A stretch of 64,000 nucleotides of DNA, from assembly GCA_047967505.1 (NCBI GenBank), contig CM106538.1; one strand, written 5' to 3'. Origin of the DNA: Dipteris shenzhenensis (lineage: Eukaryota). The position numbers and the translations under genes were made by a program. The notes under the pieces were generated by a model that worked only from the letters and a program-made list of their open reading frames with translations, was not told where the DNA came from and ran no database searches. Of this stretch, positions 3,165-50,399 are shown in pieces. Positions within the stretch are counted from its first letter, which is position 1, and each line of letters starts with the position of its first letter.

Positions 3165-3165
3165 T

Positions 3166-3177
3166 TGGTATCACAGC
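3166..3177 (+). promoter_or_regulatory. Primer binding site (tRNA-iMet type, one mismatch)
   Basis: tggtatcacagc versus the canonical TGGTATCAGAGC, 1 nt after the LTR end. Confidence 0.85.
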
Positions 3178-4199: not shown

Positions 4200-7100
4200 T
4201 GAAATGGCAAATCTAGAAAGGGATGAAATGATTAGGGAGAGTGCTAGAAAGGGAAAAGCTATAGCTGAAGTGGAAATACATGAGGAAGCATGTACCAAAA
4301 TTCATGAAGATAGCATGGAAATGGAGGATATAGATTAGAGTGATTATCAAATTCTTTATTCGGAATTCATTAAACTTAAAACTCGAACGCAAAACATAGA
4401 AACACAGGAGGGATTATTAATAATACATTGAAGTGCCTACCTGAAGCCACCAAACTATTCGATTCTCAATCGGTAACTCCTATGGTATAGTCACACCGAC
4501 TTCTCCTAGTCAAGTTCAGAGGTCCACCCTTCGACTTAGAGAAACCTCTAACATTCTTAAGGACTTGAAACCACTAATTTTTAATGGGGAAGAAAAGGAA
4601 CATAATAATGATGCGATCAATACATTCTTGCAAAAGTGGCAAGACTTCCTTCATCTCGGGAATACCCCTCCTAAAAATCAAGTTGTGGAAGCAAGTCTTT
4701 CCCTTGGAAATAAGACCTATAAATGGTTTAGAGAAGAGAATGTCCCTAAGACATCATTTCGTACTAGGTATGGGCATTATCAGTTTAAAGTAATGCCATT
4801 TGGGTTAACAATGCTCCAACAACTTTCATGACACTTATGAATAGTGTCTTAAGTCCATATTTAGGAAAATTTTATGCAGTAGTTTTAGACGATATCCTTA
4901 TTTATACTAAAACCAAAAAAAGCCTTTGGAACATTTGCAAAAAGTGTTCTAGCTGCTTAGAGATCATTCATTTTTTGATAAAGAATCCAAATGTGAATTC
5001 TTTGTTATAGAAGTAAAGTCCTTGGGACATATAATATCCCAAGAAGGAGTTTGTATGGATCCTGAAAAAGTAAGGGCCATATTGGAATGGCCACATCCTA
5101 CAAATCTAGAAGAATTACAAATATACTTAGGTTTGCCTGGATTTTAGAGGAGATTCATCCAAGATTATGCAAAGATTATTGTTTCAATGATGGACCAGCT
5201 TAAGGGGAAGGAAAGCACCTTCATATGGGATGAACCTCAAAAGAGAAGTTTTGAAAAATTAAAAGTAGCTATAGCAGTAGCTCCTATCTTAAAGGTAGTG
5301 GATCCCAATGAACCATTCATGGTTGAGACAAATAGCAGTGATTTTGTTGTTGGGGCAGTACTTTTACAAAAAGGTTGACCAGTGGCTTTTGAAAGCAAAA
5401 AGTTAGATCGTGCCCAACGAAATTACTTAGCATATGAGAAGGAACTATATGCTAGTCTATGCCTTAAAGAACTGGAGACACTATTTGTATGGTGCCAAAT
5501 TTGAGATCAAGAAAGCACTAAGTGGATTTAAAATCAACCATAGCTTAAAGGTAGAAAAGCTAGATGGGTTGAATTAATGCAAGAGTTTGATATACAATGG
5601 ACATATCGAAAGGGGAAGTTCAATGTGGTAACAGACTCCCTTAGCCGAATGCTAATTGTTAATGAATTGAGTTTTACTCAATTTTATAATGATTTCCTAG
5701 AGTCATTAAAAGGGAAATGTGAGTTTTATCCTCACTTCTTTGAAATATGGAAAGCAATTAGAAATAAAGATCCAATTAATCGAGAGGCTTTCACTGAGGA
5801 GTTGCATGGAAATGGTGATACATCATAGACTGGCGATGATAAAGGACTCAAGTGGAATAAATATACTATTGAGGATGGCTACCTGCTCTACAAGGGTAGA
5901 GTATGTGTCCCGGATAATAATGACATTAGGTGCCAAATTCTTTTTGTGTCATGATAGTCCAAGTGCTGGACACCCAGGAATTTAGAAGACATATGCGCTT
6001 CTGAAAAGGCAATTCTTTTGGCCTAGAATAGGTAAGGATGTCCGAGACTACGTATTGAAGTGCCAAAAATGCGAAGTCAATAAGGTTGAACGCCTTAAGG
6101 TAGGAGGTCTTCTACACCCATTGGAGATTCCATCGGGCAAATGGGAAAGCATCTCCATGGATTCTATTGTGGGATTACCTAGGACTCAAAGGGGGCACAA
6201 CTCTGTGTGGGTAATTGTTGATCGATTGACCAAGATGGCTCATTTTATTACTGTGAGAGTGAAGAGGTTAAAACTCGAAATTAGGAAGACTATTTGTGGA
6301 GTATATTTATAAATTGTATGGGCTACCAAACCAGTATTGTTAGTAACCGGCCATTTTTGGAGGATGGTCTTTATGAGGTTAGGAACTTCATTCAATATGA
6401 GCACCACGGATCATCGAGAGAGTGATGGTCAAACTAAGGGTCAATCAGATTATTGAAGATATGCTTTGAGCATATGTAAGTAAACAGCAAACTACTTCGG
6501 GACATTATTTGCCCATATTAAAATTTGCATATAACAATGCCAAACATTATGCTACATGTTTTAGTCCATTCATGATGATGTATGGATTTCAACCAAGAGC
6601 CCCAATGGCAGTGGGACTTGAAAAAGAGAAGGTTCAAGTGACCAAAGACTTTCTTGAATATATGAAGCAAATGCTTAAATTAGCTAATGATAGCATAAGA
6701 AGAGCTCAAGATAGAGCACGAAGTTATGCAATCCCCCACTGTAGAAGGTTGGAGTTTGAAGTAAATGAGAAAGTCTACCTGAAGGTACCTGAATCTTCAA
6801 AATCCCTAAAGACAAGTAAATGTCTGATGTTATCTCCTAGGTATTGTGGACCATTCACAATACTTAAGAGAATTGGGGAACTTGCTTACAAATTAGCCTT
6901 ACTGGAGGGATGTAAAGTACATCCTGTTTTTCATGTTAGTAGGCTAAAAAGGAAGTTAGGAGATGATGATAGTCTCATTGGAAATGAAGTCCTAGTTGAA
7001 CTCATTGAACCTGCGTCTTTACCACATGAACCAGAAAGAATTTTAAATAACAAGAAAAAAGAACATGACATAAAATATGGCAAGAATGTCTTGTTAAGTG

Positions 7101-11347: not shown

Positions 11348-12205
11348 CCAAGTGATCTAGCTGAGCATGCGTGAATGCCTGGAAGCTCAACAGCTCTGTG
11401 GGAGGAAGGAGAAGCTCTGTGGGAAGCTTTGTGGGTGACTTTACTTGCATCCGAGTGTGTATATGCCACCTTAGTTAGTTGAGTTTGGTTTTGAGACCCA
11501 CATATAGGGTTCTTCTATTTCTTTGTACTAGAGTTCTTTTGGCTTTCACAACCAAGAAGAGGAAAACTGTTTTCAGCCTCCACCTTTGTGTGTATTCCCC
11601 CATTGTGCATGTGAGAAAGCCGCAAGTGAGACTCCTTCCCTCTCTCCCACAATCTTCACATGGTATCAGAGCCTGGTTCGTGGTAAGGAGCTCAAGAAAG
11701 CAAGCCAAGTTCGTGGTGTCCTGGTAAGAGGACCAGTGTTGCTTTCCTATTTCGAGTTTGGGAGCAAATCTCTACAGGTAGCACAGCCAGAAGTGCAAAA
11801 GTGCACTGTTTCAGATTGAGACGCCCTTCGCGGTGTGGCGAGAGGTGCAGTATATGCTGCGGGAGTGGGCAAAGCCCTTAGTGACTTTATTTTTCTGATT
11901 TGAGGCCGTTTCGGGGCCTGTTTTGGAGGCGGAAGTTCTTCGCAGGCACTCAGAAAAAGGCCCTGTTTTTGGCTGTGCGACCACTGCGCAACTAGTCGTG
12001 GAAAGGTGCCGCAGAAATTGCATCGTATGCCTGTGTGCAAAGATATTAGGAGTTACAGATTCATGCCTGTTGCCTGTTGATGCAAAATCGTCACTAGGAA
12101 GTGACTGTGTGGTGAAATACCACTTTCGTCAGTTTTGCAGATCTGCCCGTGTGAGGCAAAAAGCTGTGTTTTTTGCAGTGACAGAATATTTTGCAGTGTT
12201 CTGTA

Positions 12206-13817
12206 ATGGCATCTGATTCTCTTTCACAGATTGTCACTGAAAAGCTTGACAAGAACAACTTCCAGGCATGGAAGTTTAGAATGACGAATTTCTTGATGGG
12301 AAAAGGCTATTGGGAATTCATTACAGGAAATGAAGAAGAACCTGTTCTTCCTAATGTTCCTAGTCAACAGGAAATGCAGGCATTCAAAGGATGGCATGAG
12401 AGAGCCAGGAAAGTTCTGTACTGGCTGTCTATCAGTATTTCGGACTCCATGATTGTGCATATTCAGGATGCAAATACGCCAAAGGAGGCATGGGATACTT
12501 TGGCAAAAATGTATAGCACAAATACGCAAGCCAGGAAAATGCAACTCAAACAGGAGTTGCACAATGTGCAGAGAGAAAATTTGAGCATAAATGACTACCA
12601 CATGAAAGTGAAGAAAATTGTAGATGCACTTGCTTCCATTGGGTCGCCAGTGGATGATGACGATTTGGTTTCTGTGACCTTGAATGGTCTAGGAAAGGAT
12701 TATGCACAGTTCCGGACATCCATTGCCGTCCGTGAAAACTTTCCTAATTTTGAGGAGTTGATTGCTCTTCTAATTTCTGAAGAGCAGAGAAATGGGGGTG
12801 CATCTTCTTCAGCAGGAACTTCAAAAGAAACTGTCTTCTACTCAAATGCTGGCAGAGGTAGAGGCAGAGGTAGAGGAGGCCGATCTGCAGGCCGTGGTAG
12901 AAATCAGAATATGCAGCAAACGCAAGAAAACCAGTCCTATGCAGGAGGACGTGGGAACTCTAGAGGCAGGGGGAGCCAAAGAGGCCGTGGTGGATGGCAG
13001 AGAAGCCAAAATGCAAATAGCAATGTTGAATGCTACTATTGTGGCAAAATGGGTCATATGGCTAAGGACTGCTACAAAAAGCAGAATGACATTATGAATG
13101 GAAAATTGCAGCAAGGCAATTATGCATCTTCTAGCAGGCAGGGTGATGATAGAAATGAGCATCTATTTATGGTGCAGCATATGACCAATTCTGTGACAAG
13201 TGCAGAAGAACAAAATGATGTGTGGTATGTTGACTCAGGTGCATCAAACCACATGACAGGTCATGCAGAATGGATGCAAGATGCAAGGAAGATGGAAAAG
13301 CCAGGATTTGTGGAGACTGGTGATGATACTGCACATCCTATTGTGCAGATTGGCAAAATTCCTTTGTCTATGCAGGATGGGAAAAAGAAATACTTGTCTG
13401 ATGTATTTCATGTCCCGAACATCACCAAGAACCTGGTTTCTGTTGGTCAGATGGTTGAGCAGGGCTTGCAGGTCAGATTTAATCCTCATGGATGCTTTGT
13501 TGAGGATATGAAAAATAATGGTCGCTTGATAGCAAAAGGAAAGAAGAAGGGCAGGATGTTTACGTTGGATGCAGACATGCCTGAATTGAGTGCAGCAATG
13601 TTTGCACATGGGACCGGTGTAGTTGCAGATATTGATATCTGGCACAAACGCATTGGTCATGTTAATATACAGCGACTTAAATCAATGCAAGCCCAAAATA
13701 TTGTTGCAGGATTGCCAAAATTCAAGGTTGCAGAAATGCACAAGATTTGTGAAGCCTGTCAATTTGGGAAACAGGCAAGGAAACCTTTTCCTAGGCATGT
13801 TCAAGAGAGTAAAAAAA
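12206..13817 (+). CDS. gag-pol: Copia gag (CCHC knuckle), aspartic protease and GAG-pre-integrase
   Basis: ATG at 12206; CYYCGKMGHMAKDC, WYVDSGASNHMTG, WHKRIGH...CEACQFGKQ. Frame is lost at the A7 run 13811-13817. Confidence 0.92.
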
Positions 13818-14718
13818 CCATTGGAATTAATCCACTTTGATGTGTGGACTACAAAAGCTGCATCTATTGGAGGCTGTCACTATTTTGTCACATTTATTGA
13901 TGACTTCAGCAGAAAACTGTGGGTGTATTTTATGAAAAAGAAAAGTGAAGTGTTTGGGCACTTCAAAGCTTTCAAAGCTATGGTTGAAAAAGAAACGGGC
14001 CTGCAAATAAAATGCCTAAGGTCAGATGGAGGGGGAGAGTACCTCTCAAATGAGTTTGCAAGGTTCTTGCAGGAGCATGGTATAAAGCAGCAATATTCAT
14101 GCAGTCATACCCCACAGCAAAATGGAATTGCAGAAAGAAAAAACAGGCATATTGGAGAGGTGTCTCGGGCTATGCTAAATGAAAAAGATCTACCAGATTA
14201 TTATTGGGCTGAAGCAGTTGCTACAGCAGTCTATATAATAAAGAGTCCTCCCACTGCAGCAATACATGGCATGACGCCAGAGGAGATGTATACTGGTAGG
14301 AAACCAGATATTTCTCATTTGAAGATTTTTGGTTGCATTGCTTATGTCCATGTGCCAGATGAGTTGAGGTCCAAGTTGGATCCAAAAGCTGAGAAGTGCG
14401 TCTTTATTGGTTATTCTCTGCAGCAGAAAGGGTATAGATGCTATAACCCTTCTACACGTAAGTTCACAGTGAGCAGAGATGTTGTTTTTGATGAGATGAG
14501 CAGCTGGTATAAACCAGTAAATGTGATGATTGATGTAGATGCACAAAATGGTAATGCTGCACAGAATGCACAGCAACAATCACAAAATATCAGTGGACCT
14601 GGAGTGTCCTCTACCAGTGGTTCACATACTTCGCCATGGACAGGCAGATTGAGATCAGGAGAATCCCCTCAAAGCAATGTAGATAGTGGTACGCAGGTAT
14701 CACGAAAAGGAAAAGGGG
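13811..14718 (+). CDS. pol: Copia integrase core (rve) and C-terminal SH3-like region, continuing in a shifted frame
   Basis: KPLELIHFDVW, FIDDFSR, RSDGGGEY, TPQQNGIAERKNR, KLDPKAEKCVFIGY, SRDVVFDE within ORF 13623..14867. Confidence 0.92.
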
Positions 14719-17029
14719 GCATGTTAACAACATTGGTTAATAGAGCCATGCTATTTGTAATGACAACACTAGGATACAACTTAGGGGATAGGTTCTTATG
14801 GGGCTTTGGTAGACAAGTTCTCCAAAGGAATGGGATGGTTATATATTCAACATCCTGTCTATATTAAACAACATCTAGAATGTACTCTACAATATTCGAG
14901 GGGATCAAGATGGTGACGATATGTATTTATGAATATCCCATGGCCTTCTTGATTGTTAACTTGGGGTAGTAGGAGTTCCCTAGGACTAGCTAAAAGCCAC
15001 AAGCTATGCCGACATGGCCTAAAAAGTCTAGTGCATAGAGAGTGGTATATGGAATAGGGCTAGCTATCCCTTCAAAAGGTAGAAAGGACAAGTTGCTGAC
15101 TTTGGTATTCATTGTCTTTTGCGGGCTTGGAATACAAGCATCCTTCCTTCATTTTGGTGTCTTGTTTTCTTATTTCTTGCTTGCCATCTTTGTGGTTGCC
15201 ACACCTATGTTGCCCCTTGCCCCTCTTATCCTCTCCTCTCCTCTCCTCCTTCCCTCTCCCTCTTTGGTTGAGCCACACGATCATGATAATCTTAGAGTCT
15301 AGAGGGTTTAGGGGGTCTCTAATGTTGTGCTAAAATTATGTAGACTCGTTCAAGGGAACACTAACTTAATTTTTATTTGTTTGCTTAAAACTAAAAAGGT
15401 TTGAGAAGAGGGACTCCACATTATGGAACTACTGCATGGTGGTACTAAAAATTTGATCTTTAGTGATATCGGTAGCTTGATTCAACCTAGAGTGGATGAA
15501 TTGGAAATAATCATTTCAAAGCTCTTCGAATAAATCTAACACAATTTAGAAATTTTCATTACTTCTTTTTCCATGAGCTTCCTTGCAATAAGGCCCATAA
15601 GCATGTCAAAGGTCACTATATTTCATACTCTACAAAATCTAACACCTTAGTGTGCCATTTGGCCTTCAAAATTAAAAAAAATAAATTGCCTCATCCCACT
15701 TACTTTGGGGCTACAATAGCGAGTTCCACTTGGATATAACATTTGGTGACATGTATCATAAAGGTGCCAAAGTTTTGCATTTCTCACGAGGCTTTCCAAA
15801 TTTCATGCCTTTCGCTTTGATAAATCTCATATGCATTCAAAACCATATTGCTTATTTTGAAAATCCTCGTGTAATTCAAAGTGGCTCTTTGCCACCCTAC
15901 AACCTATGCAATGTTGGCTTGCAAGAGAACCAAAACAAGCTATGGGATAGGATAATTGGAAATCTTGGTAAAGATAGAAGGAGCAGGCTGTGGGGAGAAG
16001 AAAAAATGGAACAATATCTAGCCGATATTTGTTCTCACTTTTGGTTCATTTATAGTCACCATTTGGCAATATGTAGCTTGTCATGCCTTGCAAGAGAACC
16101 AGAAACATGCTATGAGGTAGGAAAGTTGAAAATCTTGGTGAAGGTAGAAGGAGCAGGTTGTGGGAAGAGGAAAAAATGGTACAATCTATGCTTCAATGGA
16201 ACACATATTTCCAACCTTGGTGTAAGGAGAAACAATGCTAAGAAAAAATACTCCTCGCAGAGTAGCAACAAGCTTGAGTAGTAGTGGACACACATTCAAA
16301 CATTTCTATCAGATGTAAGAACATGACTTGTGGTCTCATAACTCATGGGAGCATCCTATATTTCAAGTGGGTTCAAGGACTACTTTTAAAATCCCTTATA
16401 TGTAAAATTTTCATTGATAAAATGAACCCTTTCTATAGGAACCTGTAAATTTTTAAAATTTTATTTTAGATACTCCCTTATGTTAATTAATCTAGTAAAT
16501 TTTAGAAATCCTTATATTGAACTCATGTGATAGGGTTACGTATGACAAGTGGACCCCCTCAAGTTGGTACATCAGGTCATTTGGGTAGCTACCAACTGTG
16601 TCTCGTTAGAAGCTTTAACCTGCACCCAAAATTTCATAGAGTGACAACTCTACCAATGTGTTGGGAGACACATGACCAAGAGACTATACTCTCTAACTTG
16701 CTTCTAATTTATGTCTTGCACAAATTGAAAGGGGTGTATAGTTTAAATCAACTAGCTACAAAGAGGAAAACATTAGCTATGTTGTTATTCTATGAAACAA
16801 ATGAGAGATGGGTTTGGTAGATGACATGGAACATGTTGTTGTTGATCAGATGGACCAACGTGCTCCACCAACAAGCTAGCTAGATAACACAAGGATGTTT
16901 TTAGAAAGAATTTGAGATGAAGAAATTTGACGAGCATATCATGCACATGATTAACACACGTAGGTCAATTCTAATGCTCTTATTCAAGACAACCATTTGG
17001 CTGATTAAAAGCAACTCAGTGCTTACAGT

Positions 17030-17530
17030 AATATTGTGGTTCATTTGATTTTCCTTGACAAGTACAATAGTGGAAGCAACAATATATTTTTTGTGTGCTA
17101 TGTTTTATTATAGTTTATTATTGCTCTTAGTATTTAACCATCGAGCCGTCTTGGAGTTCATATAATTTTCCTATACTAATCCAAAGATTGGAACAACAAT
17201 ATATTTGGCATGTATTATGTGTTGTAATAGTTCTAGTTAATTTTCTTAAGAGGCTCAAAACTTGATTTCATGATATAGTTCAATTAATGTTCTTAAAGTC
17301 TCCAAATTTTTATTTCTTGATTTCCCACCATGTTGGTTCAATTCGACTGGCTTGGAGTTCATGTGATTGTCCTAAACTAACTTGGTGTTTAAAAAATCAA
17401 TGTATTTTGCATGTATTATATTTTATTACAATGTTAATTAGTGCAATTGGACAAGGCTATCTTAGGTATGTGATTGTCCTAAACCATCTTGGTGGTTGGA
17501 ATAAACACTATATTAGTAATTTTGGAAAAA
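17030..17530 (-). repeat. Degenerate tandem repeat, inverted relative of the 62460-64000 array
   Basis: Three units with caat(a/g)tattt..catgtatta. 17396-17485 matches the reverse complement of ~63843-63955 (ttgtcctaaac / gtttaggacaa). Confidence 0.7.
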
Positions 17531-17629
17531 TCCCAATTCCCACTTTCTCCCAAAATCCAAAAATTGAAGGCATTACATTTCATTTAGAAGGGAATGAATT
17601 GATGAATTCATACATTCAAGCATTTTTTT

Positions 17630-18115
17630 GAGTATTAATTTGGCTTAATATTATATCATTCTATTGAGAAATCAAGATGATTGCATGTGAATTACGAATT
17701 ATCATGCATTGTGAATCGAAAAAAGATAAATTTTTTTTCCAAGAGAAAGGTGGTGTTATAAGAAACACCCTTGATATTCGAGTTACTAATCTTAAATTAT
17801 AAATTCAAATGGTTTTGAGAGTATGCATATATATTGTTTAAGTTCTCTCCAATTCAAATATATATTTGAGTTTTAACTTAGCTTAATATAATATCGTTCT
17901 ATTAAGATAATATTGAAAATGTTACATGAGAATTACCAATTATCAATGACATGCATTGTGAATCCAAACATGTTCATATATTATAAGTCTGTTGTTGCAA
18001 ATTATATGTTCGAGACTTCAAAGACTAGATCAAAATTTTCTTAAGAGAGAAAGGTGGTTGCTAAGAAACACCTTTGATATTTAAATTACCAATCTCAAAA
18101 ATTCAAATATATTTG
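17630..18115 (+). repeat. Two diverged direct copies of a ~200-240 bp AT-rich unit
   Basis: gcttaata, catgcattgtgaatc, agagaaaggtggt and aagaaacacc each occur twice in the same order. Confidence 0.75.
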
Positions 18116-18153
18116 GGAATAGGCCAACAACAACATGACAATGACGTTACATG

Positions 18154-18705
18154 TTAAAACTCATACTAATAAAACAACTCCTCTCTTGCATGGATATCCA
18201 TAAGGGATTGTACAACAACATTTCCAAACATATCAATATCCAACACATCTTGTTTATATTAAACCCAAGGTGGTAAATCAAGGTCATATACATATATAAC
18301 ATTCGTTCTATCTACTAATAGAGCTATTGATGCATCCAACTACATTCCCATACAACGCATCTCCCAAAATGTATTACATATACTCTTTTGGTGTAAATTT
18401 TGTATCTTCAAGGAGGCCATGGGTCCTAAACCTTGAAAAGTAAGAGCAAAGAGTAATCCAAGTATCGTAACCATACTTTAGGCCATCGTACACCAAAAAG
18501 TCTTTTTTTTCTTCTATATCTTCATGTATAAACATGCCATAACTTGCTCCTAAATATGATGATCTCTTCACTGCAAATCAAACACCTTTAAACTCAAATA
18601 TAGAATCAATTGGTATTGGGAGATTGTGCTCCCACAAGCCATTCACCTTAAGGTCAAATTGTAGAATTACTTCATTCTTCACTTCTTTTGGCAAGTTATC
18701 AAACC
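18154..18705 (-). pseudogene. SET-domain-like pseudogene exon
   Basis: Manual translation gives VKRSSYLGASYGMFIHEDI...LVYDG, then in the same frame YILGDALYGNVVGCINSS, then VVQSLMDIHAREELFY*YEF. These are the three SET signature blocks in order, with stops. Confidence 0.72.
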
Positions 18706-19149
18706 CTATACATAAAAGAAAACGGATAAAGAGTTATAACAGAAATGAGGACTAAAGAAAACTACCAAAATGATGCGTCACAAATAAGTACCTATGCCAA
18801 GTTACCATTATCAAAGATTTATTGCATGCTTAATCCAAGAGATACTTGAAGGCTTGGTATGCATGCTTTTGCATACGTTGGCAAACATAACCCAATTTCA
18901 GGGCATACAAAAAGCTTGCACATCTCTCAAATAATTTGGCCTCTTTATTCTCTCCAAGAGCTCCAAGTATTTCGGCTTGTTTCTAGCACTTGTTCTTGAA
19001 ATTTTGTTTATTGTTCCTTGTCTAGCTCACAATCATCTCCACGTCTTTCATTTTGATGTCGGGTGACCCCAAAACAACTTGAGCTAGTCGAACTAAATAC
19101 TTTTTTGGAGTAGATTCCTTTGAGAACTCTTTTATATACTTAGTAGTAG

Positions 19150-19620
19150 ACTCCTCCCACTCCAAAATCACTTCTTTGAAATGCATATATTGAGATGATG
19201 ATTGACATGTATTGTATCACTGCCATAACTATCAAGCTTGATACTATTCCCTATATCTGACACATTTCTCAACTGAAGGAGGTAAGGGAGAAGTTTAGTA
19301 TGTCATCATCCCATGTATCTCAAAGGAATATGGATGTATACAATTTGCTCTAGGATTTACACACCCCTTATACAGACAATCATCAATAAGCAATATGTTA
19401 GCATGATTGAATTCTTTATCATTTGTTTGAATGGTGATTTCTAGATGCATTGGATTTCCATTTGTAACATGGCACACAAAAGTTCCATCAAGTTGTGAAG
19501 TTAAGATTCAATAAATGTAGGCTAGGCTTAAATTTACAAATGTTATCTTATGTACTCTATCTCATTTAAGTTTTTTTGTGTAATAAACAATATCAATTTT
19601 GAAACTGATATTGTCTCCAA
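19150..19620 (-). pseudogene. FCP1/NIF-type HAD phosphatase C-terminal half, pseudogenised
   Basis: EFNHANILLIDDCLYKGCVNPRANCIHPYSF resembles the plant NIF-family block NTLLIDDSPYKAxxNP. It is followed after a frameshift by LLPYLLQLRNVSDI...SYGSDTI...HFKEVI, similar to that family's C-terminus. The N-terminal DxD motif was not found. Confidence 0.65.
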
Positions 19621-19774
19621 ACTTCCCAGGTGCTTAATAGTCACAAAAAATTGACTTAATTTACAATTTGCAATATGAAAAGAAGAAGATTATAACTCAA
19701 ATGCAGATTGTATGTTACATGTCCAAACACAACATCAAAATGCATGTCTACGCTGTAGCATGCACTTCATTCTC

Positions 19775-21050
19775 GATGGAGCATGAAGCATCAAGATTAG
19801 TTTTAAAATTGAGCATGATCCTTCATGATCGGAGGAGCATGAAGGGCCAAGCTCGGTTTTAAAACTAAGAGATTAGCCCTTCATGCTACAATATTTCATG
19901 CTCCATGGAACATGAAGGGCCAAGCTCGATTTAAAATCAAGCTTGGTTCTTCATGCTCCATTAAGCATGAAGGGCATGCTCTAGAACCAAGCTCAAATTT
20001 GAAACCAAGCTTGGCCCTTCATGCTTGATGGAGCATGCCCTTCATGCTAGATGGAGCATAAAGGACCAATCTCGGTTTTAAAATCAAGCTTGGTCCTTCA
20101 TACTCCATCCTTTCATGCTCCTTAGAGAATGAAGGGCCAAGATTGGCTTTAAAATCAAGCTTGGCTTGAGCATGAAGCACTAAGCTTGGTTTTAAGACCC
20201 AGCTTGGTTATTCTATGCCACATTGAGCATGAAAGTCTAAGCCCATTTTTGAAATAAATTTGTACCCTTCATGCTCCACACCTTTCATGTTCATTGGAGC
20301 ATGAAGGACCAAGCTCCATTTTAACATCGAACTTGGCCCTTCATGCTTTATGGAGCATATCCCATCATGGTCGATGGAGCATAAAGGGCTAAGCTAGATT
20401 TTTAAACCAAGCTTGTCCCTTAGTGCTCTATGGAGCATGAAATATTGGAGAATGAAGAGCCAAGATCAATATTAAAACCGAGCTTGGCCCTTCATGATTT
20501 ATGGAGTATGGAAGGTTGGAGCATGAAGGGCCAAGCTTGGTTTTAAAGCTGAGCTTGGCCCTTCATGCTCTATGGAGCATGGAAGGTTGGAGCGTGAAGG
20601 GAAAAGCTCGATTTTAAAACCGAGCTTGGTCCTTCAAATGCTTAATGAAGCATGCCCTTCATGATCCATGGACCATGAATGGCATGCTCCATGGAGCATA
20701 AAGGACCAAGGTTGGTTTTAAAACCAAGCTTAGCCCTTTCATGCACGGTGCATGCCCTTCATGGTCCAAACTTTCATGATCCTTAGAGCATGAAGGATCA
20801 AGCTTGGTTTTAAAACCGAGATTAACCATTTCATGTTGTACTGAGCATGAAAGGCCAAGCCCAATTTTAAAACTGAGCTTGGTTGTTCATGCTTGATGGA
20901 GCATGCCCTCCATGCTCGCGATGGAGGAGCATAAAGGGTGTGCTCCAACCTTTCATGTTCCAAGGAGCACGAAAGGTTGGAGCAATGAAGGCCAAGCTCG
21001 ATTCAAAAAACAAGCTTGGTCTTCCATTATCTATCAAGCATGGAAGGCCA
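19775..21050. repeat. Array of two alternating palindromes (~28-bp monomer in alternating orientation)
   Basis: Consensus AAGCTCGGTTTTAAAACCGAGCTT alternates with GGCCCTTCATGCTCCATGGAGCATGAAGGGCC; roughly 17 TTTTAAAA-type centres counted by eye. Confidence 0.92.
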
Positions 21051-21402
21051 GGATCGGTGAGCTTAGTAAAAATCTTCAAATTTCAACTTCAACAAGGGTG
21101 CATGTATGCATGAAAGCACTTGCTCTAACTTGTGGGTTTTACGGGGTCTTTAGACGTTGTCAATTATTTAGTAAGAAATAATAAAAAAGAAACGCTTTGA
21201 AGACTCACAAGATCCATTAGGCTTTGCCAAGGTTCTAGCATGCTCTCACACTGACTGCAAAGCCACTGCCTTAAAAAAAACAAAACTATAATTTAAAATT
21301 GAAAGGTGAATCGGTGTGCAAAGCTTTGATGTCAACTTTTTAGGGTTTTTTTTTGCTTTATTTTTATAAACAGATCCAGTAGATGACAATCTCTTCACTA
21401 GT

Positions 21403-21480
21403 AGGCATAAATTCTGTTAGGTTGGCATAAAGCCCATTAGGCAGGCATAAAGCCCGTTTTACAAGCATAAAGCCCATTTC
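21403..21480 (+). repeat. Four ~20-bp tandem repeats (ggcataaagccc core)
   Basis: gcataaa recurs at 20-bp spacing. Confidence 0.8.
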
Positions 21481-22320
21481 AATAGGAAAACATAATTGTT
21501 TTCACAGGCAAACCTGCTTTTCTGGCAAATGGCTTTTTGGATAGCAAAATTTTTTTCTGGGCAACTTCAGTAGTTAACAAGTGAATTGGCTCTAGCACCT
21601 TGCTCTCACAAACTTTGGCATTTGAAAGGGCCCATGGATGCCTAAAGTTGTAGACCGCGATTTGACACTTCTCCCGAAATTAATTATCCAATCCATGCTT
21701 AAGTTTAGAATTTTGTAGTGCAGTCACACCAGTAATAATACATCAGAATCCGGATGTCCAAGATGTAAACTCGGTTGTTTGCATCCTCTTGTAGCTCATG
21801 GGATTCTTTGGGGGCTTTACTCGGCCTTTTCTTGTGTCTCCTCAGTCCCTACAAAGCTTCAACAGTAGTTAACAAGTGAATCGGCTCTAAAGCCTTGCTC
21901 ACAAACAAACACAGGAGACCTGGATGAGTGACTGGAAAGCTAGAAGTGACTTGAAGACTTGTAGCTGGAGAAAGTCAGACAATCATTCTAGGGAGAGCTC
22001 AAGCATGGACGGAGAGTGGAGCCCTTGAATTGATTTACAGCCATGTCGGAGGGGGGTAAAAAGCACACACAAGCTAAAAGCTAAAAATCCAACATCCATC
22101 TAAAAGTAGGTTTATAAATTCCTTAAAAACTAAGAATAATCACAAAACTCCCACTCAACTCGATCCTAAAGCAGTGCCTCTAAGACAGCCATTGCTAATA
22201 AAGTGGCAAATTTGAAATTCAAATTTTAAAATTGCCACTCCATGCAAATTCAAATTGTAAACTTTTAAAATGTTTTAATTATCATATTTAGCTCTGTGTG
22301 AGAGAGAGAGAGAGAGAGAT

Positions 22321-23680
22321 CACACACACACAGATACACTGGCTACATACACTTAAATACACAAACACATGCACATATTTACTCACACACATGCTCACAC
22401 ACATATGCACGCACACACACATGCACACGCTCACACACACATGCACACATGTGTGCACACACACACACATGTGTGCACACACACACACATGCTTATTATT
22501 TGGTCACATAACCACACATACATACACTATTACCCCTAATACAATATTCATTTTATTAACTTTTTGTGTCGATATGATGCAGCTTACCTAGTGGATTTGG
22601 TACCAGTATTTCTTTGTATTGAGAAGGTTACCATATTTAAACATCAAAGTAACAAGCAACTTCTTTTGGTTGGATCCCTTTTGTATCTGCCTTTGTACTT
22701 TACAATTCTAGACATGATAATTGCTCCAAAGACTCAATGCCAACTTACAATTTTAATAGTTGAAGGTGTGCGTATAGATCAATATGGCTATTTTGAAAAG
22801 CTTCTTAGTGCAAATGTGGTTGGACCTTTAATTACCCTATTTATTTGGCTCTTTAAACATACCGTATGCTTTCATATTGATCTAACCCCTTCATTTTAAG
22901 TATGGGATAAGGTTGACGGAACTACTATGCGGTGCCATTACTTGTTCACGAGCTAACTATCTAAACCCCCTACTTGCCTCTATCCTCCCTTGTCACGACT
23001 TCTATTATGACCTCTAGATACCTTTAGTCCCTATCTTCCTAAGATTGGACTATAATGGATCCCCTTTACATGCAACCAACATCATAGCCTCCCTTTATGC
23101 AATGGCATCGACTCAGGTACTTTGGCCTTGCACTCTTGATTCTTGCTTGCCATCAATATCTAATTTTCTTGTTCTTACACATTAAATGTCTCTTCGGTTA
23201 TTATTTGCAAGCTTTTTTGCATTCTTTCAAATGGTTGACAATAAGCTCTAGGGATTGTATCTACCGTGTGACTACCTTCGGTTTCTTTGCTTTTGGTTCT
23301 TTGATTGCTTTGGCATCATTCGGTTGCTTGTTGCGATACATTTGCATACTAGCATGACTCTGATCACGATGAAAATCCAACCTTGGTTGGTCCCTCTGGT
23401 ACTTGGTTATGCTGTTAGTGGTGTCATAGTCATTGTAACGTAGTCCTTTGATTTGGCTTACCATCGCATGTTACGTGCCTAACCATCAATCACGTGATGG
23501 TGATTTGCTTTTGCTGAGCGCTTTGGCAATAGTATTTACAGTTGGTCATGGCTTGCTTTCACGGGTTTTGAGTGACGTTGATGATTGTTGATTGCTACTA
23601 CTGTGTGGTTCCCAACTCCATATATTGCATGCCTCTCTTGCATTGGAACTTGGACCTTTACTTACCTATGTAATCTTTGT
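22321..23680 (+). repeat. Left long direct repeat (pseudo-LTR)
   Basis: Co-linear with 26274-27670; both end in ttacctatgtaatctttgt. Lacks a ~60-bp segment present in the right copy. Confidence 0.9.
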
Positions 23681-23689
23681 AGCTCGCTA

Positions 23690-26180
23690 CTAGTTATGCA
23701 TGCTTTGCTTTGGGAGTAATGTGGTAGATGGACATTGGACATAGACCCTTTGAAATGCTCTAGTTTGGCACTCATTGCTAGAACAAAGAGACGTGTCAAT
23801 CAAGATAAAATCCGAGAACCCAAAAATTTTCTCAAGAACCGTTGGAACACTTTTAGACCTTTCCTCAAGTGTCAATCCAAAAAAATCTAACCCAAATTCC
23901 TCCTGCTCGGCTTCTATCATTTGGTTTGATCATCTTCTGTGGTACGTTTTTCAGAACCTTCCCCACTTTTTTCCGTTTTCTTTCGGACCAGCTCTTGTTT
24001 ATGCTTTTATTGGTTGGGTTGCCTCTTTCCCTTCTAAAATTCGAACATCTATCTTGGTTTACTTTTGGTTCCATGAGTATATGTTAGAAGTAGCTTGCAA
24101 CTTAGCTCTATATACCCTCAACTTCCCCCTGCTTCCTTAGTTGCCCAACACCCTTATCTCCAATACAATCAAGTCAATTCTCAAACCAACCAAGGGCAAG
24201 GATTATAAAAGACTCTCCATTACTTCTAGCTCTATGGCATCCACATCAAAGAAGCCACCAATGTTTTGTGGGTTTGAAAAGTTCAGTGATATGACTAAAG
24301 CACTTGACTTCAATATCGAATATGATCAGGTAAGAATTCTTACTAAAAACTCTAATGGCTTACTTATGCTCAATGAAAAGAAAACTAGAACTAAAAGATT
24401 TATTCATCTTCTTTTTGTTAATAAAATTTTTGACTTCATTTCACTTGAAAAAGTGTTTTTAGAAGTCTTGGAGAGATTTAACATTAATAAAACTTTTTTT
24501 GCATTTAATATTGGCTTTAGTATTTGAAGGATATGGTACCCACATTTTATCAATTGACCCTACCTTATGTAGACATCCTTGCCTACATTATTTTATGAGA
24601 AAAGGTCTGAACCACATTCCTCAAGTTCCCATTAACCCATATCTTGCCACTAAGGAATTAAAAACTGCTTGGTCAAAACTATGCAACTAGATGTGCATAA
24701 ATGAAATTATTGACCACCATAGTTTTATTAGAAACATTGTCTTAAGGGACTTCAGTAACCTTTTTCCCAATCATAGGTTTAATCAAGAACCATGGTTCCA
24801 AGACCCCAATATTATGGATGAAATCAGATATCTCCATGACTACCTTTTCATTTGTGGCTTGGACAAATTAGCCCAAACCCCTACTTTCATCTGTAAGTCT
24901 CTCATTAGAAGCTTAGCCCTTCAATGACTTAATTCCCCTGGATTTTTGCTTTCCACCCACTAATGAAGAAGAAATTGCTAATCTTGTTACAATGTTTTCT
25001 CAACCCTTTGATATTAACATCCCTACTTGCTCTTCTATCCCATACATTATCATGGGTACTTATAAAATTCACAAAAATTCCTTTAGATGGCTAATAATGC
25101 TCATAATTGCATATTCTCAAACATTACTGCTCGTATTACTAAACTAATTAAAGCCTTAGATATTGGTATACAAGAATATATGAAAAGGCTACACAAAGAT
25201 TTATTTACCTTTTCACGGGTTAGTACTAATGCATAATGGATTATCCAAAACCAATATGATTTCCTTGTAAACTTGCCTAAACACATGTACTCTATTTTTA
25301 CATTTGATATTACCTCATGTAATGAAGCTATCCCACATCAAGGACCCAATGGTCTTATCGAATCACTCCATAATTTCATTATAATTACATAAACCCTTGG
25401 CTATTGTGATTTCAAAAAACATAGAGAATATTTTCTGTTAACCAAAAAAATCAAAGAATGTAGTCTTACTTTCAATAATCTCATTTCGTTAAATACCTTT
25501 GTTTTAGATAATTGCTTCTCTAAACATGGGGATAGGATGTATATACAAACTAAGGGTATCCTCATGGGATATTCTTGTTCACCCTTTTGGTGTAATGTTT
25601 ACATGGCATGGTTTGAATTATAGTTTATTCAAAAACTCTCTAAACTAAAACAAAGGGATATGCTTAAATCTTTCCGTTTATCATTTTGGTATATGGATGA
25701 TCTTGCATTTGTTAATAATGATTTTATCATAAAATTCCTTTCTCATAATAACCCTATTGATCCTAATGACCCATATTGTATATACCCTTTGGATATTATT
25801 AATATAAAACCCATTTATGACACTTGTGCTACCACTTTTCTCAATACTTCCATTACACTTATCAGACCATTTATTGGTGCCTTTGAAACATGCACATGTT
25901 GGAAGAAGGATAACTTACCTTGCCCAAATATTTCTTCATTCATGCAAATAGTAATAGGCCTAAAAATTGTGCCAATAAAGTTTGTATTTCACAAGTCTTA
26001 CCACTTTTATATAATGCATGCCATTTCACTTGTGCCTATATTGATCTTCTCAGATTCATTCATCTTTTTGGAAAAAATGGATTTAAAACATTTATTACTA
26101 CAAAAAATATTAGGCTTTTTAAAAAAATAATAAGTTTCAAGGGTTGAAGTTTGACATCAATCAACTTATTAAACTTTTAA
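23690..26180 (+). pseudogene. Penelope-like reverse transcriptase pseudogene
   Basis: HILSIDP...KGLNHIP, CGLDKLAQTPTFICK, GTYKIHKNSFRWL, TFDITSCNEAIPH (motif A), YIQTKGILMGYSCSPFWCNVYMAWFE (motif B'), WYMDDL (motif C), TFLNTSI (motif E), with many stops and frameshifts. Confidence 0.85.
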
Positions 26181-26271
26181 GTGGGGGACAAGTTCCACTT
26201 AGTGGGCTTACTCCCCACTACGTGGACCTTCCCCTAGGGATGTGGGTGGGTGCGTGCGCACATGCACGCAT

Positions 26272-26273
<2 letters not shown>

Positions 26274-26337
<64 letters not shown>

Positions 26338-27670
26338 TGGCTACATACACTTACATACACAAACACATGCACATATTTACTCACACACATGCTCACACGC
26401 ACGTACACACACACACACACACACATGCTTATTATTTGGTCGCATGACCACACATACACACTGTTACCCCTAATACAATATGCATTTTATTAAATTTTTG
26501 TGTTGGTATGATGCAACTTACCTAGTGGATTTGGTAGTAGCATTTCTTTGTACGGAGAAGATTGCTGTTTTCAAACATCAAAGTAACAGGCAACTTCTTT
26601 TGGTTGGATCCCTTTTGTATCTGCCTTTAATTAATCAACCCCAATTTTTAACGTTTGGCACCTTGTCAATTTTTGAAACTGCATAATCTTTTGTACTTTA
26701 CAATTCTAGACATGATAATTGCTCCAAAGACTCAATGCCAACTTACAATTTTAATAGTTGAAGGTGTGTGTATAGATCAATATGGCTATTTTGAAAAGCT
26801 TCTTAGTGCAAATGTGGTTCGACCTTTAATTACCCTATTTATTTGGCTCTTTAAACATACTGTACGCTTTCATATTGATCTACCCCCTCATTTTAAGTAT
26901 GGGATAGGGTTGATGGAACTACTTTGTGGTGCCATTACTTGTTGACAAGCTAACTATCTAAATACCCCCCACTTGCCTCTATCCTCCCCTGTCGTCTCAC
27001 AACTTCTCTTGCTACCTCTAGCTACCTTTAGTCCCTATCTCGCTAAGCTTGGACTATAATCCATTCCCTTTGAATGCAACCAACATTGTAGCCTCCCTTT
27101 ACGCAATGGCATCGACTCATATACTTTGGCCTTGCACTCTCAATTCTTGCTCACCCTCGATATCTACTTTTCTTGTTCTTACACATTAAACGTCTCTTAT
27201 TATTTGCAAGCTTTTTTGCATTCTTTCAAATGGTTGATAGTAAGCTCTAGGGATTGTATCTACCGTGTGACTACCTTCGGTTTCTTTGCTTTTGGTCTTT
27301 TGATCGCTTTGGCATTATTCGGTTGCTTGTTGTGATACATTTGTGTACTAGCATGACTATGATCACGATGAAAATCCAGCCTTGGCCGGTCCCTTTGGTG
27401 CTTAGCTGTGCTATTAGTGGTCGCATAGTCGTTGTAATGTAGCCCTTTGAGTCCGCTTACTGTCGCATGTTACGTACCTAACCATCAGTCACGTGATGGT
27501 GATTCGCTTCTTGTTGAGCGCTTTGGAAATAGTATTTACAGTTGGTCGTGGCTTGCTTTCACGGGTTTTGAGTGACATTGATGATTGTTGATTGCTACTG
27601 CCGTGTGGTTCCCAACTCCATATACTCCATGCCTCTCTTGTGTTGGAACGTTTACCTATGTAATCTTTGT
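26274..27670 (+). repeat. Right long direct repeat (pseudo-LTR), starting in a (CA)n tract
   Basis: (CA)n at 26274-26332 followed by sequence co-linear with 22335-23680. Confidence 0.9.
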
Positions 27671-28577: not shown

Positions 28578-31500
28578 TGTAAGAAAACAATACAACGTCT
28601 GTGCTCAACAGATAACAGGATCTCGTATGCAAGAGAGAAAAGCCAATAGTATGGAGAATCAAAAACTTGATTACTGTAAAAGTGATACAATATATGGTGC
28701 TGCATCCCAGCCATGCGCTCTTGTGAGAGAAGCTTCGATGGTGTGCTGGAAACAATAGAGGACGGATGTTGGATGCTAAAGAATCAGGGTTGCTATAGCC
28801 AATGATAATAATGGGCTTCATAGTCTTGCTCTTATATAGCCACCAATCGTAGTCAGTTAGACCCAATTAGGAGACCGACCCAGTCCACCCAAACTAGCCG
28901 ACTGGAGGTTGGTCCCGAAATAGGCCACCAACCACATGATAGAACCGTGGTGCAGAATAGAGCAACTAACCTACGGTCTCTGTTCGGCCCATAGCCATCC
29001 ATGATCATCTGGGGCTCCAAATGAGCCTCACAGTGGGCTACCCTAGGAAATGCCCCATCTACCCTCAGTGCAGTCAAACATGGGATGCCTTCCTGCACTT
29101 GCATGTAGCCTAGTTGGCAGTGTGCCAACTCTATCTGAAGCCGTCTAGCCATCAAGCCACACATGGCCCCCATTTGGTGTCCAAACCAAGACCTACCAGA
29201 TAATTGAGGTACTCAAATACCTTCTCCTCATATGGGGGGCTTACAAGTAGAGTTAGCTGGTTCCCATGTAGTTACACGAGAGTGGAGCATTGATATCTAA
29301 CACCCCCCCTCAATGTCCACCCGCAAGTGAACTTACTTTTTCGGCCCAATGCCAAGTCTATGAAGATGCTTCTCCATCAAGTCTCTTCTTAGAGCCTTTG
29401 TGAAGATGTCTACAGCATTCTCTATAGTCGGACAGTACACCAAGTCGACCTCTCCATCCATGATGAGCTCGCGTACAAAGTGATATTGAATCTCAATGTG
29501 TTTTTTGCGAGCGTGGAACATAGGGTTCCTTGCAATCTCCATGCAACTCTAATTGTCACATGATAACTGCGTAGGCTTGTTCTGCACTGTACCCATGTCC
29601 ACTAAAATCCTCCTCAACCACACTACCTCACAAGAAGCAAAACATGTTGATTTGTACTCAGCCTCGGTAGAAGAAAGAGCGACTGTAGGTTGCTTCTTGC
29701 TGACCCACGACACAGCTCCAGATCCAAGTGAGAAATAGTAACCTGTCACTGATCTCCTGCTATCCATGTCTCCTGCCCAATCCGAGTCATAGAATTCGGT
29801 CAAGATGTTGCCCTTGGTATAGGTGATGCCATAATCAAGTCTACCTTTGATGTATTTTAGCACCTGCATCTTTGCCCTCCAATGGTTCTCCCAGGGCTTA
29901 TTGGAAAACATGCTTAGTATACCAATCGCAAAGCTAATGTCCGGCCGCATGTTGCACAAGTAAATCAAGCTGCCCACAAGCCTTCTATACTTCACTTCGT
30001 CCACCAGTGGTGATGAATCTTCGTTTGAGAGCTTCATGTCAACCTCCATAGGGGTACCAACTGTCTTGCACTCAGCCATGCCAAATGCCTTCAGTATCTC
30101 TCCAGCATACTTCAGCTGTGAGATGACCTGTTTGGCTCTTGCCAAACTTCAATCCCCAAACAGAAATGCATGAGTCCACGGTCTGTCATTTCAAACTCTC
30201 TCTTCCTAGCAAATTCTTTGTCTACGAGATCTTCTCTTCATGGTTCCTTGTTATGACAAGGTCGTCCACGTAAAGGACCATGATCATACACCTACCTCCT
30301 TCTCTATAGTTATACAAATTTGCATCAGATGGGATCCTCCTGAACCTATTTTGCAGAAAGTAGGCAATCCACTGTTACCATGCTCGTGGGGCCTGTTTCA
30401 GCTCGTAAAGTGCCTTCTTCAGTTTACAGACTTTACCTTCTGAATTGGGGATCACAAAACCTGGTAATTGTTCCATGTATACCTCCTCCTTGAGATCTCT
30501 ATTCAAAAAGGCGGATTTTACATCCATCTAAAACACGGGCCAACTTTCTTGTGCTGCTATAGCCAAAACACTGTGAATTGTGGTTAGTCGAGCTGTGGGA
30601 GAAAAAGTATCCTGATAATCAAAACCATGTACCTGTGCGAATCCTTTTACCACGATCCTTATCCAGCGTGCCATTGGACTTGTACTTGGTCTTGTACACC
30701 CACTTGGTTCCGATTACCTTGCGTTTTGGTGGTCGATCCACAAGGTCCCAAGTGTTGTTCTTCATTATGGAGCCATACTCTGACTACATAGCCTCCATCC
30801 ACCTATCATCACCCTGTGCCTCTTCAAGACACTTGGGTTCTTCAGCACGAATCACCTCTGTCATCAAAGCGTCATTGACCAAGTGTTCCTGCACCCTTCT
30901 TTGCTCCTCTAATCTCTTGGACCGGCGGTGTTCAGATGGTTCCTCCTCAATGGCTAGAGGTTGTCTATCATCCAAAAGCTACTTTACCCACTTTGGAAAT
31001 GGCCATTGCCATTGTGGTTCCACAGGCTCTTCTTCCTCTTCTTTATCTTGAATCCTCCCAAGCACCGTTGGGGGAGTTCAGTCTGTTGTTGGTGATTGTA
31101 TTGGATGGATATCCTGGTCCTAGTTGTCTGGGAAGGAAGCATCCTCCTCCAATTGATGCGGCTGTTCTGAGAAGACCACATCACAACTTACTAGTACCTT
31201 CTTAGTAACAGGGTTATAGAGATGATAACCCTTTGCCTCTTCACTGTAGCCCAAGAAAATATAGTTCCGACTCTTCGGTTCCCATTTAGTCCTATTAGCA
31301 TCAGGGACATGCACAAAACAGTCACATCCAAAAACTCTGAAATGTGCAGCTGAAGGTTTCTTACCAAAAAAGGCCTGCAATGGAGTCATCCTATTCACAG
31401 CCTTCGTGTAGCTACGAGTCACAATGTAAACTGCCGTGTTACATGCTTCAGCCCAGAAAGTCTTTAGCAAATCTTTCCCTTTCATCATACTCCTACCCAT

Positions 31501-32699
31501 TTCGTAGATGACGTGCATCTTGCATTCTGCTACTCCATTTTGTTGTGATGTATGTGGTGGGAGTTTCTGCCTCTTGATCCTGTGACTTTTGCAGTAACTT
31601 TCAAATTCACTTGATGTGAACTCACCACCTCTATTTGATCTCAACTTCTTCACCTTCCTCCCCATTTCTGTCTCGACCATTACATGCCATTCTTTGAACT
31701 TACTAAAAACCTCATCTTTAATCTTCAAGAAGTATATCCATATCCTTCTACTGTAGTCTTCGATCAGCATCATGAAGTAGTAGGAACCACCCAAAGCTTT
31801 CGTCTCCATCTGCCGATGCTGCTTGCCCATCATGCAAGCTTCACATACATCGGGCAGATCTATAATTTCTAGTAGGTCTACAATCATTCCACTTTTATGC
31901 ATCTCCTTTAAAGGACTAAGGTTTAGATGACCAAACCTCTCATGCCACAGCTTAGTGTTCTTCACATCGGCTCGAGCACTGAAAGCTGAGAGTTCATAGA
32001 TGTTGTTGCATCGTGTACCTTTACCAACGACCTTCCCTTGAAGATCCAAAATCTGTGCACCATTCTTATCGAATTGAACTTTGAGGTCGTGATCCGTGAT
32101 CACAGAAATGGACAACAAGTTCCTCTTGATATCAGGCACATAAAGAACATCGGAGAACTGTTTTACAACTCCATCTGACTTAAGAGCAATCGTAGCTTTT
32201 CCTTTTGCTGGATATTTTGCATCATTGCCAATTGCTACCAGGATGTCATTCCCTACCAGATGTAGAGAGGTATACCAATCCTTCCGACTAGTCATGTGGC
32301 GCAATGTGCCACTATCAATAATCCAAGGTTCATCTGCAGGTACATGAACTGCCTTCATGCAAATCTCCTCGATTGCTATGAACAGCTTTACTAGTACTGC
32401 TTGCGCACTATTGCAAGACTCTTTCTTTACTCTGTTCTTCCCGAGACATGCTCCATCCACCCTCAGTGCGGTCAGTCATGGGATGCCTTCCCACACTTGC
32501 ATGTAGCCTACTTGGCAATGTGCCAACTCTATCTAAAGCCATCCAGCCATCAGGCCACACATGGCCCCCATCTGGTGTCTAAACTAGGACCTACTGGATA
32601 ACCGAGCTACTCAAATGCCTTCTCCTCATATGGGGGGCTTAAAGTAGAGTTAGCTGGTTCCCGCATAGTTACACGAGAGTGGAGCATTGATACCTAATA
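28578..32699 (-). mobile_element. Ty1/copia element, deleted derivative (full 3' LTR, partial 5' LTR, no PBS and most of gag missing)
   Basis: 3' LTR 28578-29302, PPT complement ccccccctca at 29303, 5' LTR remnant ~32447-32699, imperfect TSD aaaat/gaaat. PR-IN in ORF 31120..32460; RT/RNase H in 29549..30145 and 29333..29542 (KHIEIQYHFVRE, VDIFTKAL). Same family as 57626-62372. Confidence 0.92.
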
Positions 32700-50109: not shown

Positions 50110-50316
50110 TGTGTATGCACGTAGATATGCAAGCCTTTATATATGTATATGTGGATGTATGTATGTGCATGTCTGTGCACATGATTGTGTGTGCTTGCAT
50201 GTATGTGTGTACACCACTTGTGTGTGTGTAGGCTGTGTATACCTGTGAATGTGCATGTGAATGTGTGTGCTTACATATGTGTGTGTATGGTGTGTATGCA
50301 TGTGCATGTGCATGTG

Positions 50317-50397
<81 letters not shown>
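50110..50397 (+). repeat. Compound (TG)n/(TGCATG)n microsatellite
   Basis: Pure TG run at ~50318-50397 preceded by degenerate TG-rich sequence. Confidence 0.95.

Positions 50398-50399
<2 letters not shown>

Follow-up and report, generated by a model that had tools for sequence, protein, structure and literature searches.

A decayed NIF-like and SET exon pair in a fern genome: remnant of a multi-copy, probably transposon-borne unit

Chromatin enzymes carried by transposons are rare, and they are candidates for the means by which mobile elements evade or steer silencing by their hosts. In the available text of a preprint on Bostrychia moritziana, red-algal Plavaka elements of the EnSpm/CACTA superfamily are described as carrying PAG2, which combines an N6-adenine methylase with a SET domain, whilst PAG3 of these elements exhibits a ParB-like N-terminus and is adjoined by tandem inverted-repeat arrays (bioRxiv 10.1101/2025.02.11.637652). 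According to the same source, HarbingerS transposons possess an accessory gene with a SET domain, and Helitrons have picked up SET genes by capture; VANC anti-silencing proteins are mentioned there too (bioRxiv 10.1101/2025.02.11.637652). This preprint was the only parallel to surface in our literature search, which found neither a unit of NIF-like and SET parts nor a SET gene on a plant CACTA element. Here we analyse a locus from Dipteris shenzhenensis (contig CM106538.1, assembly GCA_047967505.1) within a stretch of 64,000 nucleotides, referred to below as the window, in which the remains of a NIF/FCP1-like exon and of a SET exon lie next to each other on the minus strand. We read positions 19417-18154 as the decayed 3' end of a multi-exon, multi-copy unit that is probably a transposon-borne module of chromatin type, and we put the probability of this reading at roughly 60%. 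The named relatives of the unit all come from ferns.

Identification of the NIF-like and SET fragments

A sequence-only reading of the window had picked out short peptides reminiscent of an FCP1/NIF phosphatase and of a SET domain, together with a GT-AG pair between them, and all of these do occur in 18154-19620 on the minus strand. The peptide NILLIDDCLYKGCVNP lies inside a 70-aa open reading frame (ORF; 19295-19507, minus) and GASYGMFIHEDI inside a 67-aa ORF (18374-18577, minus); GNVVGCINSS follows in the same frame as GASYGMFIHEDI with one stop between them, and DIHAREELFY*YEF* is encoded within the ORF 18166-18258 (minus), in a frame that differs from that of GNVVGCINSS. Direct comparison with Pfam returned no NIF or SET match for the seven ORF scraps of the locus or for three read-through frames of 18100-19750 (E≤10), nor for the six frames of 15001-27000 (E≤1). 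Relatives of the two parts were obtained by using one read-through frame, with its stops written as X, as a phmmer query against 1.84 billion representative proteins. This gave 21 matches, 18 on the SET-like part (query residues ~348-512; best P0001, E 6.7e-19) and three on the NIF-like part (query residues ~114-216; best P0017, E 2.1e-6). Of the 18 SET-side relatives, 10 exceed the cut-off of Pfam SET and two match it below the cut-off, the other six being truncated or chimeric; two of the three NIF-side relatives exceed the 21.8-bit cut-off of Pfam NIF (P0017, 55.8 bits; P0019, 52.5 bits), as does the NIF exon of a metagenome contig, L002, described below (58.1 bits). With P0017 as query, 25 further members of the NIF family were recovered, each 190-426 aa long. 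Hidden Markov models (HMMs) were then available for both families, comprising 26 sequences and 361 positions for NIF, and 10 short sequences and 179 positions for SET; when run on all six frames of the window, they match nowhere except at 19417-18157. Both domain assignments are thus right, reached through profiles built from relatives where the Pfam models alone give no match on the window, and at the level of sequence the homology of both parts is far beyond chance.

The NIF/FCP1-like (HAD) fragment spans 19016-19417 on the minus strand and covers positions 150-284 of the 361 in the family HMM (E 1.4e-16); tblastn with P0017 aligns to 19408-19115 (E 9.6e-10). An inner piece (TKLLPYLLQLRNVSDIGNSIKLDSYGSDTIHVNHHL, 19192-19299, minus) matches HMM positions 191-226 in a second frame (E 9e-7), which implies two frameshifts within the fragment. 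The LLIDD motif is kept: NILLIDDCLYKGCVNP aligns with ntlLiDDspfKGciNP of the family HMM. Profile positions 1-149, with catalytic motif I among them, are missing: the family HMM finds no piece of them elsewhere in the window. Downstream, 18830-19015 (minus) is probably the decayed C-terminal tail of the same exon, ending at the TAA at 18830-18832: the envelope of the NIF HMM match extends to 18830, and in a three-sequence search the tail gives weak but colinear matches (profile positions 33-52, then 52-60 over a frameshift; E 0.15-0.21). Full-length NIF-family proteins stop at or just past one shared position, …LQNAYL(D/N)S, and the stop in the window comes after …AFKYLLD. Judged from these weak colinear matches, the stop at 18830-18832 is probably the family's own protein end. 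Motif I of the family, which is covered by 17 members, reads ILDLNG in 15, ILNLNG in one and ILSLCG in one, and never DxDx(T/V); this change suggests a domain that is predicted to be weakened or non-catalytic.

The SET-family terminal exon is preserved in two parts on the minus strand. The first (18302-18705) contains in-frame stops and matches HMM positions 3-131 at 18688-18302 (E 5.2e-36), whilst the second, past a frameshift (18154-18312), matches positions 130-178 at 18312-18157 (E 3.4e-8) and has two internal stops. Together the frame is full length (positions 3-178 of 179) up to the family stop, with the natural TAA at 18154-18156 directly after the C-terminal YEF of the family, and it is broken by one frameshift near 18312 and five in-frame stops. 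With the window pieces included, a profile matches PDB chains of EZH2, MLL1 and other SET proteins (E ~4e-5). In the family alignment the SET motifs appear as GxG-LF, N-S-S and GEEL..Y.F, to which GNVVGCINSS and REELFY*YEF correspond in the window. The SET consensus has NHS at the place where this family has NSS, and a C-terminal tyrosine in ELxF/YDY. A structural model was made of the relative P0062 rather than of the window copy: its SET fold (residues 295-452) is predicted with local-distance confidence (pLDDT) values of 75-94, and Foldseek matches it to the SET domains of MLL1 (template-modelling score of 0.65 on the target), SETD8 and SET7/9 with E-values of 3e-7 to 1e-6. To go by its reading frames the window copy is dead: everything upstream of NIF position 150 is gone, at least three frameshifts and at least six premature stops have accumulated, and no working protein would be made. 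Its value is as a pointer to the family.

Arrangement of the NIF and SET exons

The two fragments had been proposed to form one gene, read through a candidate 86-nt GT-AG intron at 18706-18791 (minus; GT at 18791-18790, AG at 18707-18706, preceded by a polypyrimidine tract). When metagenome contigs were scanned with the SET alignment, eight loci (L001-L008) emerged, one of which allows this arrangement to be seen in an intact state. This is L002, a contig of 5915 bases in which NIF is followed by SET on one strand: the NIF exon (3569-4609) covers profile positions 7-359 (E 3.8e-187; Pfam NIF 58.1 bits), with a splice acceptor in front and a TGA at 4607-4609 at its end, and the SET exon (4998-5576) covers profile positions 3-178 (E 3.5e-68; Pfam SET 37.2 bits), again with an acceptor in front. 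As in the window, the SET exon of L002 begins ~6 codons before SET profile position 3, and seven gene models from a second source share a junction between (D/N) and TKELSD that maps to ~18703-18706 of the window. The position of the proposed acceptor at 18706 is therefore conserved at the start of the SET exon in two other lineages.

In case of a true fusion, a single mRNA would be spliced from 18791 to 18706 and encode one NIF-SET protein, the stop at 18830-18832 then being a mutation of the decaying copy. The shared strand and order, the short spacer, the GT-AG pair with its good polypyrimidine tract and conserved acceptor, and an Adiantum nelumboides gene model, P0067, in which the initial 39 residues of NIF (profile positions 14-52, E 3e-11) stand between an acidic exon and SET, are all in keeping with such a protein. 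Against it, the intact NIF exon of L002 ends in its own TGA, and full-length NIF-family proteins end at or just past the same alignment position. In the window, the candidate donor at 18791 sits 39 nt past the probable NIF stop, so splicing from 18791 to 18706 would not fuse the frames. Moreover, 79 related proteins include no case with both domains complete; such a protein was found in none of 44 related proteins, in which each profile was compared with the other family, in none of 17 homologues of the upstream ORF introduced below and in none of eight new long SET models, and none of the 21 phmmer matches has two matched stretches. We consider a single fusion protein very unlikely. What stands of the one-gene proposal is one conserved unit, intact in L002 and leaving a trace in P0067; what falls is the single polypeptide. 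As far as can be read from sequence, NIF and SET are linked neighbours, i.e. adjacent exons or ORFs of one unit.

The fragmentary state of the NIF part and surroundings full of repeats and retrotransposons would also be expected if unrelated fragments had been joined at this place only, for instance by a Helitron, a Pack-type element or nested insertions. Since the same strand and order, with close spacing, are intact in L002 and a trace of the pairing is seen in Adiantum P0067, the pairing does not appear to be due to chance, and a purely local capture is highly improbable. NIF lies upstream of SET in two of the four loci with at least 1.5 kb upstream of SET, namely the window and L002, and not in L001 and L003; the remaining loci carry less than 270 nt upstream of SET and stand outside this count. 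The distance from the NIF stop to the start of the SET profile is 428 nt in L002 versus 142 nt in the window, and aligning the two spacers as DNA is uninformative at such divergence.

Composition, copy number and possible mobility of the unit

Upstream of the NIF exon, L002 contains an ORF of 519 codons (321-1877) and acidic exons (2649-3503), neither of which belongs to a Pfam family. The ORF and the acidic stretch that follows it share one frame over 321-2318, with a lone stop at 1878-1880 between them; since the homologue P0046 has Q at this place, even the L002 copy may be impaired. The AlphaFold model of the upstream ORF resembles amino-methyltransferases over residues 220-435: M.MboIIA (Z 12.5, 190 residues), CcrM (Z 12.2) and rotifer N4CMT (Z 10.6) are matched, as are EcoP15I Mod, MTA1 and METTL3, and the top 20 rows of the structure search are all amino-methyltransferases (Z 12.5-7.4), the next row having a Z of 6.3. 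The atlas features of the ORF likewise point to methyltransferase clusters at 0.94 and 0.87, the second being the PF01555 cluster. A search for PDB sequence matches to the ORF returned none. By our own placement of the motifs, the DPPY position reads D[L/A]HG in the consensus; together with the changes from DxDxT in NIF and from NHS in SET, this means that all three parts of the unit may be altered or non-catalytic. In the window itself we found neither homology to the upstream ORF nor a DNA methylase domain.

Of the 17 homologues of the upstream ORF, two are named: a hypothetical protein of Ceratopteris richardii and P0061 of Adiantum nelumboides, a model that runs from part of the upstream ORF through acidic exons into SET and skips NIF. 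Five homologues lie on contigs identical in size to contigs of the NIF family (13415, 7080, 8663, 29897 and 15150 bases), and this match in size alone suggests NIF linkage on these contigs. In L002, the unit runs along one strand from the methyltransferase-like ORF through acidic exons and a long NIF exon with its own stop to a small terminal SET exon. The likeliest reading is that all parts are transcribed as one unit whose 3' exons are alternatives: the upstream exons would either join the NIF exon or skip it and join the SET exon, as seen in the Adiantum gene models. About 150 residues before the methyltransferase-like part, the Adiantum models P0061-P0066 have a conserved stretch, …YWIISGQHSIVAAK…, with a GQHS motif that looks ParB/DGQHR-like by eye. 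A ParBc_2 match occurs in one of 16 members of the upstream-ORF family (E 0.013); this candidate ParB-like N-terminus is unconfirmed, with no Pfam or PDB match and a pLDDT of ~25 in this region, and serves as a lead only.

The SET exon is multi-copy in Adiantum nelumboides: a region search finds it in 10 gene models on contigs of at least eight different lengths, with eight models 94-100% identical in this exon and two truncated models 86-87% identical, and one Adiantum SET cluster represents 11 member sequences. In a second source, five full models carry a SET module that is 91-99.5% identical behind unrelated N-termini, whilst in a sixth the SET module is preceded by a gypsy integrase and in a seventh it is followed by RVT_1. 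Among the metagenome loci, CACTA-type transposase domains occur beside SET above the Pfam cut-off in three of five independent locus groups: L004 (Transposase_21, E 1.6e-72), L005-L008, which represent one element at 99.5-100% identity (Transposase_21, E 1e-51), and L001 (DUF4216, E 5e-13; also Transpos_assoc, 26.7 bits). In L003, the sole match is a sub-threshold one to Transpos_assoc. The placement of SET differs between these loci: in L001 (402-2065) it lies downstream of DUF4216, right after the Transpos_assoc-like stretch, and L004 and L005-L008 have it ~1 kb upstream of their TNP2 transposase. Such variation suggests repeated capture or rearrangement.

In a tree of the SET sequences, the window groups with the L002/Adiantum and P0006 groups (support 89/89) on a long branch. 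The tree contains 17 rows, no starred clade of which holds the window; rows that were partial or nearly identical to others are not included (P0003, P0004, P0007, P0008, P0010, P0012, P0015, P0020, P0062-P0067, P0069 and L004-L007).

The proposal that the locus is transposon cargo was made by the sequence-only reading, and it holds in part: the SET exon is multi-copy and has CACTA neighbours in three other loci, whilst neither a transposase nor terminal inverted repeats or target-site duplications were found around the remnant in the window. Several further points weigh against a transposon-borne unit. Queries of TNP2, DUF4216 and Transpos_assoc gave nothing against the window by tblastn (E≤1), and the 5.9 kb of L002 are likewise without a transposase or terminal repeats. 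The CACTA-linked SET loci represented in the tree (L001, L003 and L008) lie in the other branch, so that the transposon link is indirect for the branch of the window. The SET of the window is at most ~41% identical to any relative and its branch is long; protein clusters are small, with 1-18 members, and would fit a modest gene family equally well. As to the composition of the unit, Pfam, including PF01555, does not recognise the methyltransferase-like ORF of L002, the mean pLDDT of its model is only 50.5, and the scheme of alternative exons is drawn from gene models and splice signals alone. A possible CACTA end (CACTACAA) at 21713-21720 (minus) was also considered and rejected: it is no more frequent than expected by chance, and an inverted mate was not found.

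A rival explanation would be an ordinary fern nuclear gene family, expanded through tandem or segmental duplication or polyploidy, with the window holding a plain pseudogene that duplication and later insertions of other transposons had left behind. The NIF-containing copies without adjacent transposase or terminal repeats fit such a family, as do the multi-exon structure with introns, the small protein clusters and the one named upstream-ORF homologue of Ceratopteris in the length range searched; in Adiantum, the pairs _004471/_004472 and _066100/_066101 on equal-sized contigs suggest tandem copies. A family of this kind sits poorly with 10 Adiantum models on at least eight contigs, eight of them with SET exons 94-100% identical, with gene predictions that fuse the SET module to a gypsy integrase, to RVT_1 and to other unrelated N-termini, and with SET relatives within CACTA-transposase neighbourhoods. 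There is also a published parallel, as far as the available text of the preprint describes it, in the accessory gene of methylase and SET on EnSpm-type elements (bioRxiv 10.1101/2025.02.11.637652). We regard the host-gene explanation as a serious possibility, if an unlikely one. In the transposon-borne reading, which we prefer, the unit would be carried by a DNA transposon as an accessory module directed at chromatin, comparable to PAG2.

Surroundings of the remnant and comparison with known systems

Between 19731 and 21080, an array of ~71-nt palindromic units, delimited by Tandem Repeats Finder and repeat families and without assigned strand, borders the remnant on its truncated 5' side and occurs nowhere else in the window. 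Each unit is a near-perfect hairpin (…GCATGAAGGGCCAAGCT…TTTTAAAA…AGCTTGGCCCTTCATGC…), and many copies are mutually inverted. The array is absent from L001-L008, and L008 contains no comparable array. Given the inverted-repeat arrays described beside a Plavaka accessory gene in the available text (bioRxiv 10.1101/2025.02.11.637652), the array in the window could belong to the same element as the remnant.

The remainder of the window is rich in transposons. Ty1/copia-type sets of gag, integrase and reverse transcriptase (RT) frames, decayed to various degrees, lie at 12182-14867 (plus), 29549-32475 (minus), 41745-46314 (plus) and 58840-61435 (plus), with open frames longest in the set at 41.7-46.3 kb, where they reach 684 aa. 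A pair of direct repeats of ~1.3 kb (22321-23657 and 26319-27657) is 85-97% identical in blocks at a spacing of ~4000; between its members, an RT-like stretch (…GILMGYSCSPFWCNVYM…FWYMDDLAFV…) lies on the plus strand at ~25500-25800, where RVT_1 scores 13.9 bits (E 0.044), under the Pfam cut-off. Positions 22321-27657 may be a small, unusual element of long-terminal-repeat type. Long simple repeats of (CA)n/(CACACATG)n-like sequence occur at 49940-50540, 22360-22490 and 26360-26490, the latter two located where the long direct repeats begin. Among viral contigs there were 18 pattern matches and no relatives, which neither supports nor counts against a viral origin.

A wider view would be that ferns carry a land-plant branch of a mobile epigenetic accessory cassette, the description of which has so far been confined to red algae (PAG2). 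Its parts would have been remodelled, with a methyltransferase-like part (DxHG), an inserted NIF-like part (DLNG) and a minimal SET; one pre-mRNA with alternative terminal exons would yield a product with either the phosphatase-like part or SET, the targets of these products would be RNA polymerase II or the chromatin of the element itself, and the adjacent palindromic array might serve as protein-binding repeats of the element. We offer this view tentatively and hold it, as a whole, to be doubtful. Should the fern unit prove to be mobile and a relative of PAG2, the cassette would reach land plants with very large and poorly explained genomes, and it would have gained a partner resembling phosphatases of the RNA polymerase carboxy-terminal domain (CTD), one that has so far been undescribed for such a cassette.

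VANC proteins, encoded by VANDAL (Mutator) transposons of Arabidopsis, are anti-silencing factors. Their likeness to the fern unit would be one of concept only, that of a transposon-encoded factor acting on the chromatin of its own element, and they differ in having no sequence or domain similarity to it. The NIF part resembles CTD phosphatases of FCP1/SCP1 type (Pfam NIF, PF03031), in that its relatives pass the Pfam cut-off and the window keeps LLIDD; it differs through motif I, which is ILDLNG in most family members, and a tail of its own of ~170 residues, and the window copy is without the N-terminal half. The SET part is matched to MLL1, SETD8, SET7/9 and EZH2 by profile and model. In contrast to these proteins, the SET of this family is only ~180 aa long, without pre-SET, post-SET or reader domains, has NSS and ends in Y-x-F.

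Amongst mobile elements, the SET genes of HarbingerS and Helitrons are alike by description, a small SET gene travelling with a DNA transposon; they belong to other transposon superfamilies, and the available text of the preprint mentions no NIF-like or methyltransferase-like companion (bioRxiv 10.1101/2025.02.11.637652). For PAG3, the likeness lies in the red-algal inverted-repeat arrays, as described in the same text, when set beside the palindromic array next to the window remnant. To judge from that text, PAG2 differs from the fern unit in several respects: the fern methyltransferase-like part is missed by PF01555 and has D[L/A]HG in place of DPPY, a NIF/FCP1-like exon stands between this part and SET, the fern parts are separate exons or ORFs rather than one annotated protein, and no transposase was found next to the NIF-containing fern copies; the two are likened by description only. 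Set against these differences, both would join a part of DNA-methylase type, in the fern unit a predicted N6/N4-like fold, with a Pfam SET domain in a repeated and probably mobile unit, and other members of the fern SET family sit beside TNP2/CACTA transposase genes. Going by the available text, PAG2 of the red-algal EnSpm/Plavaka elements is the closest description in print (bioRxiv 10.1101/2025.02.11.637652).

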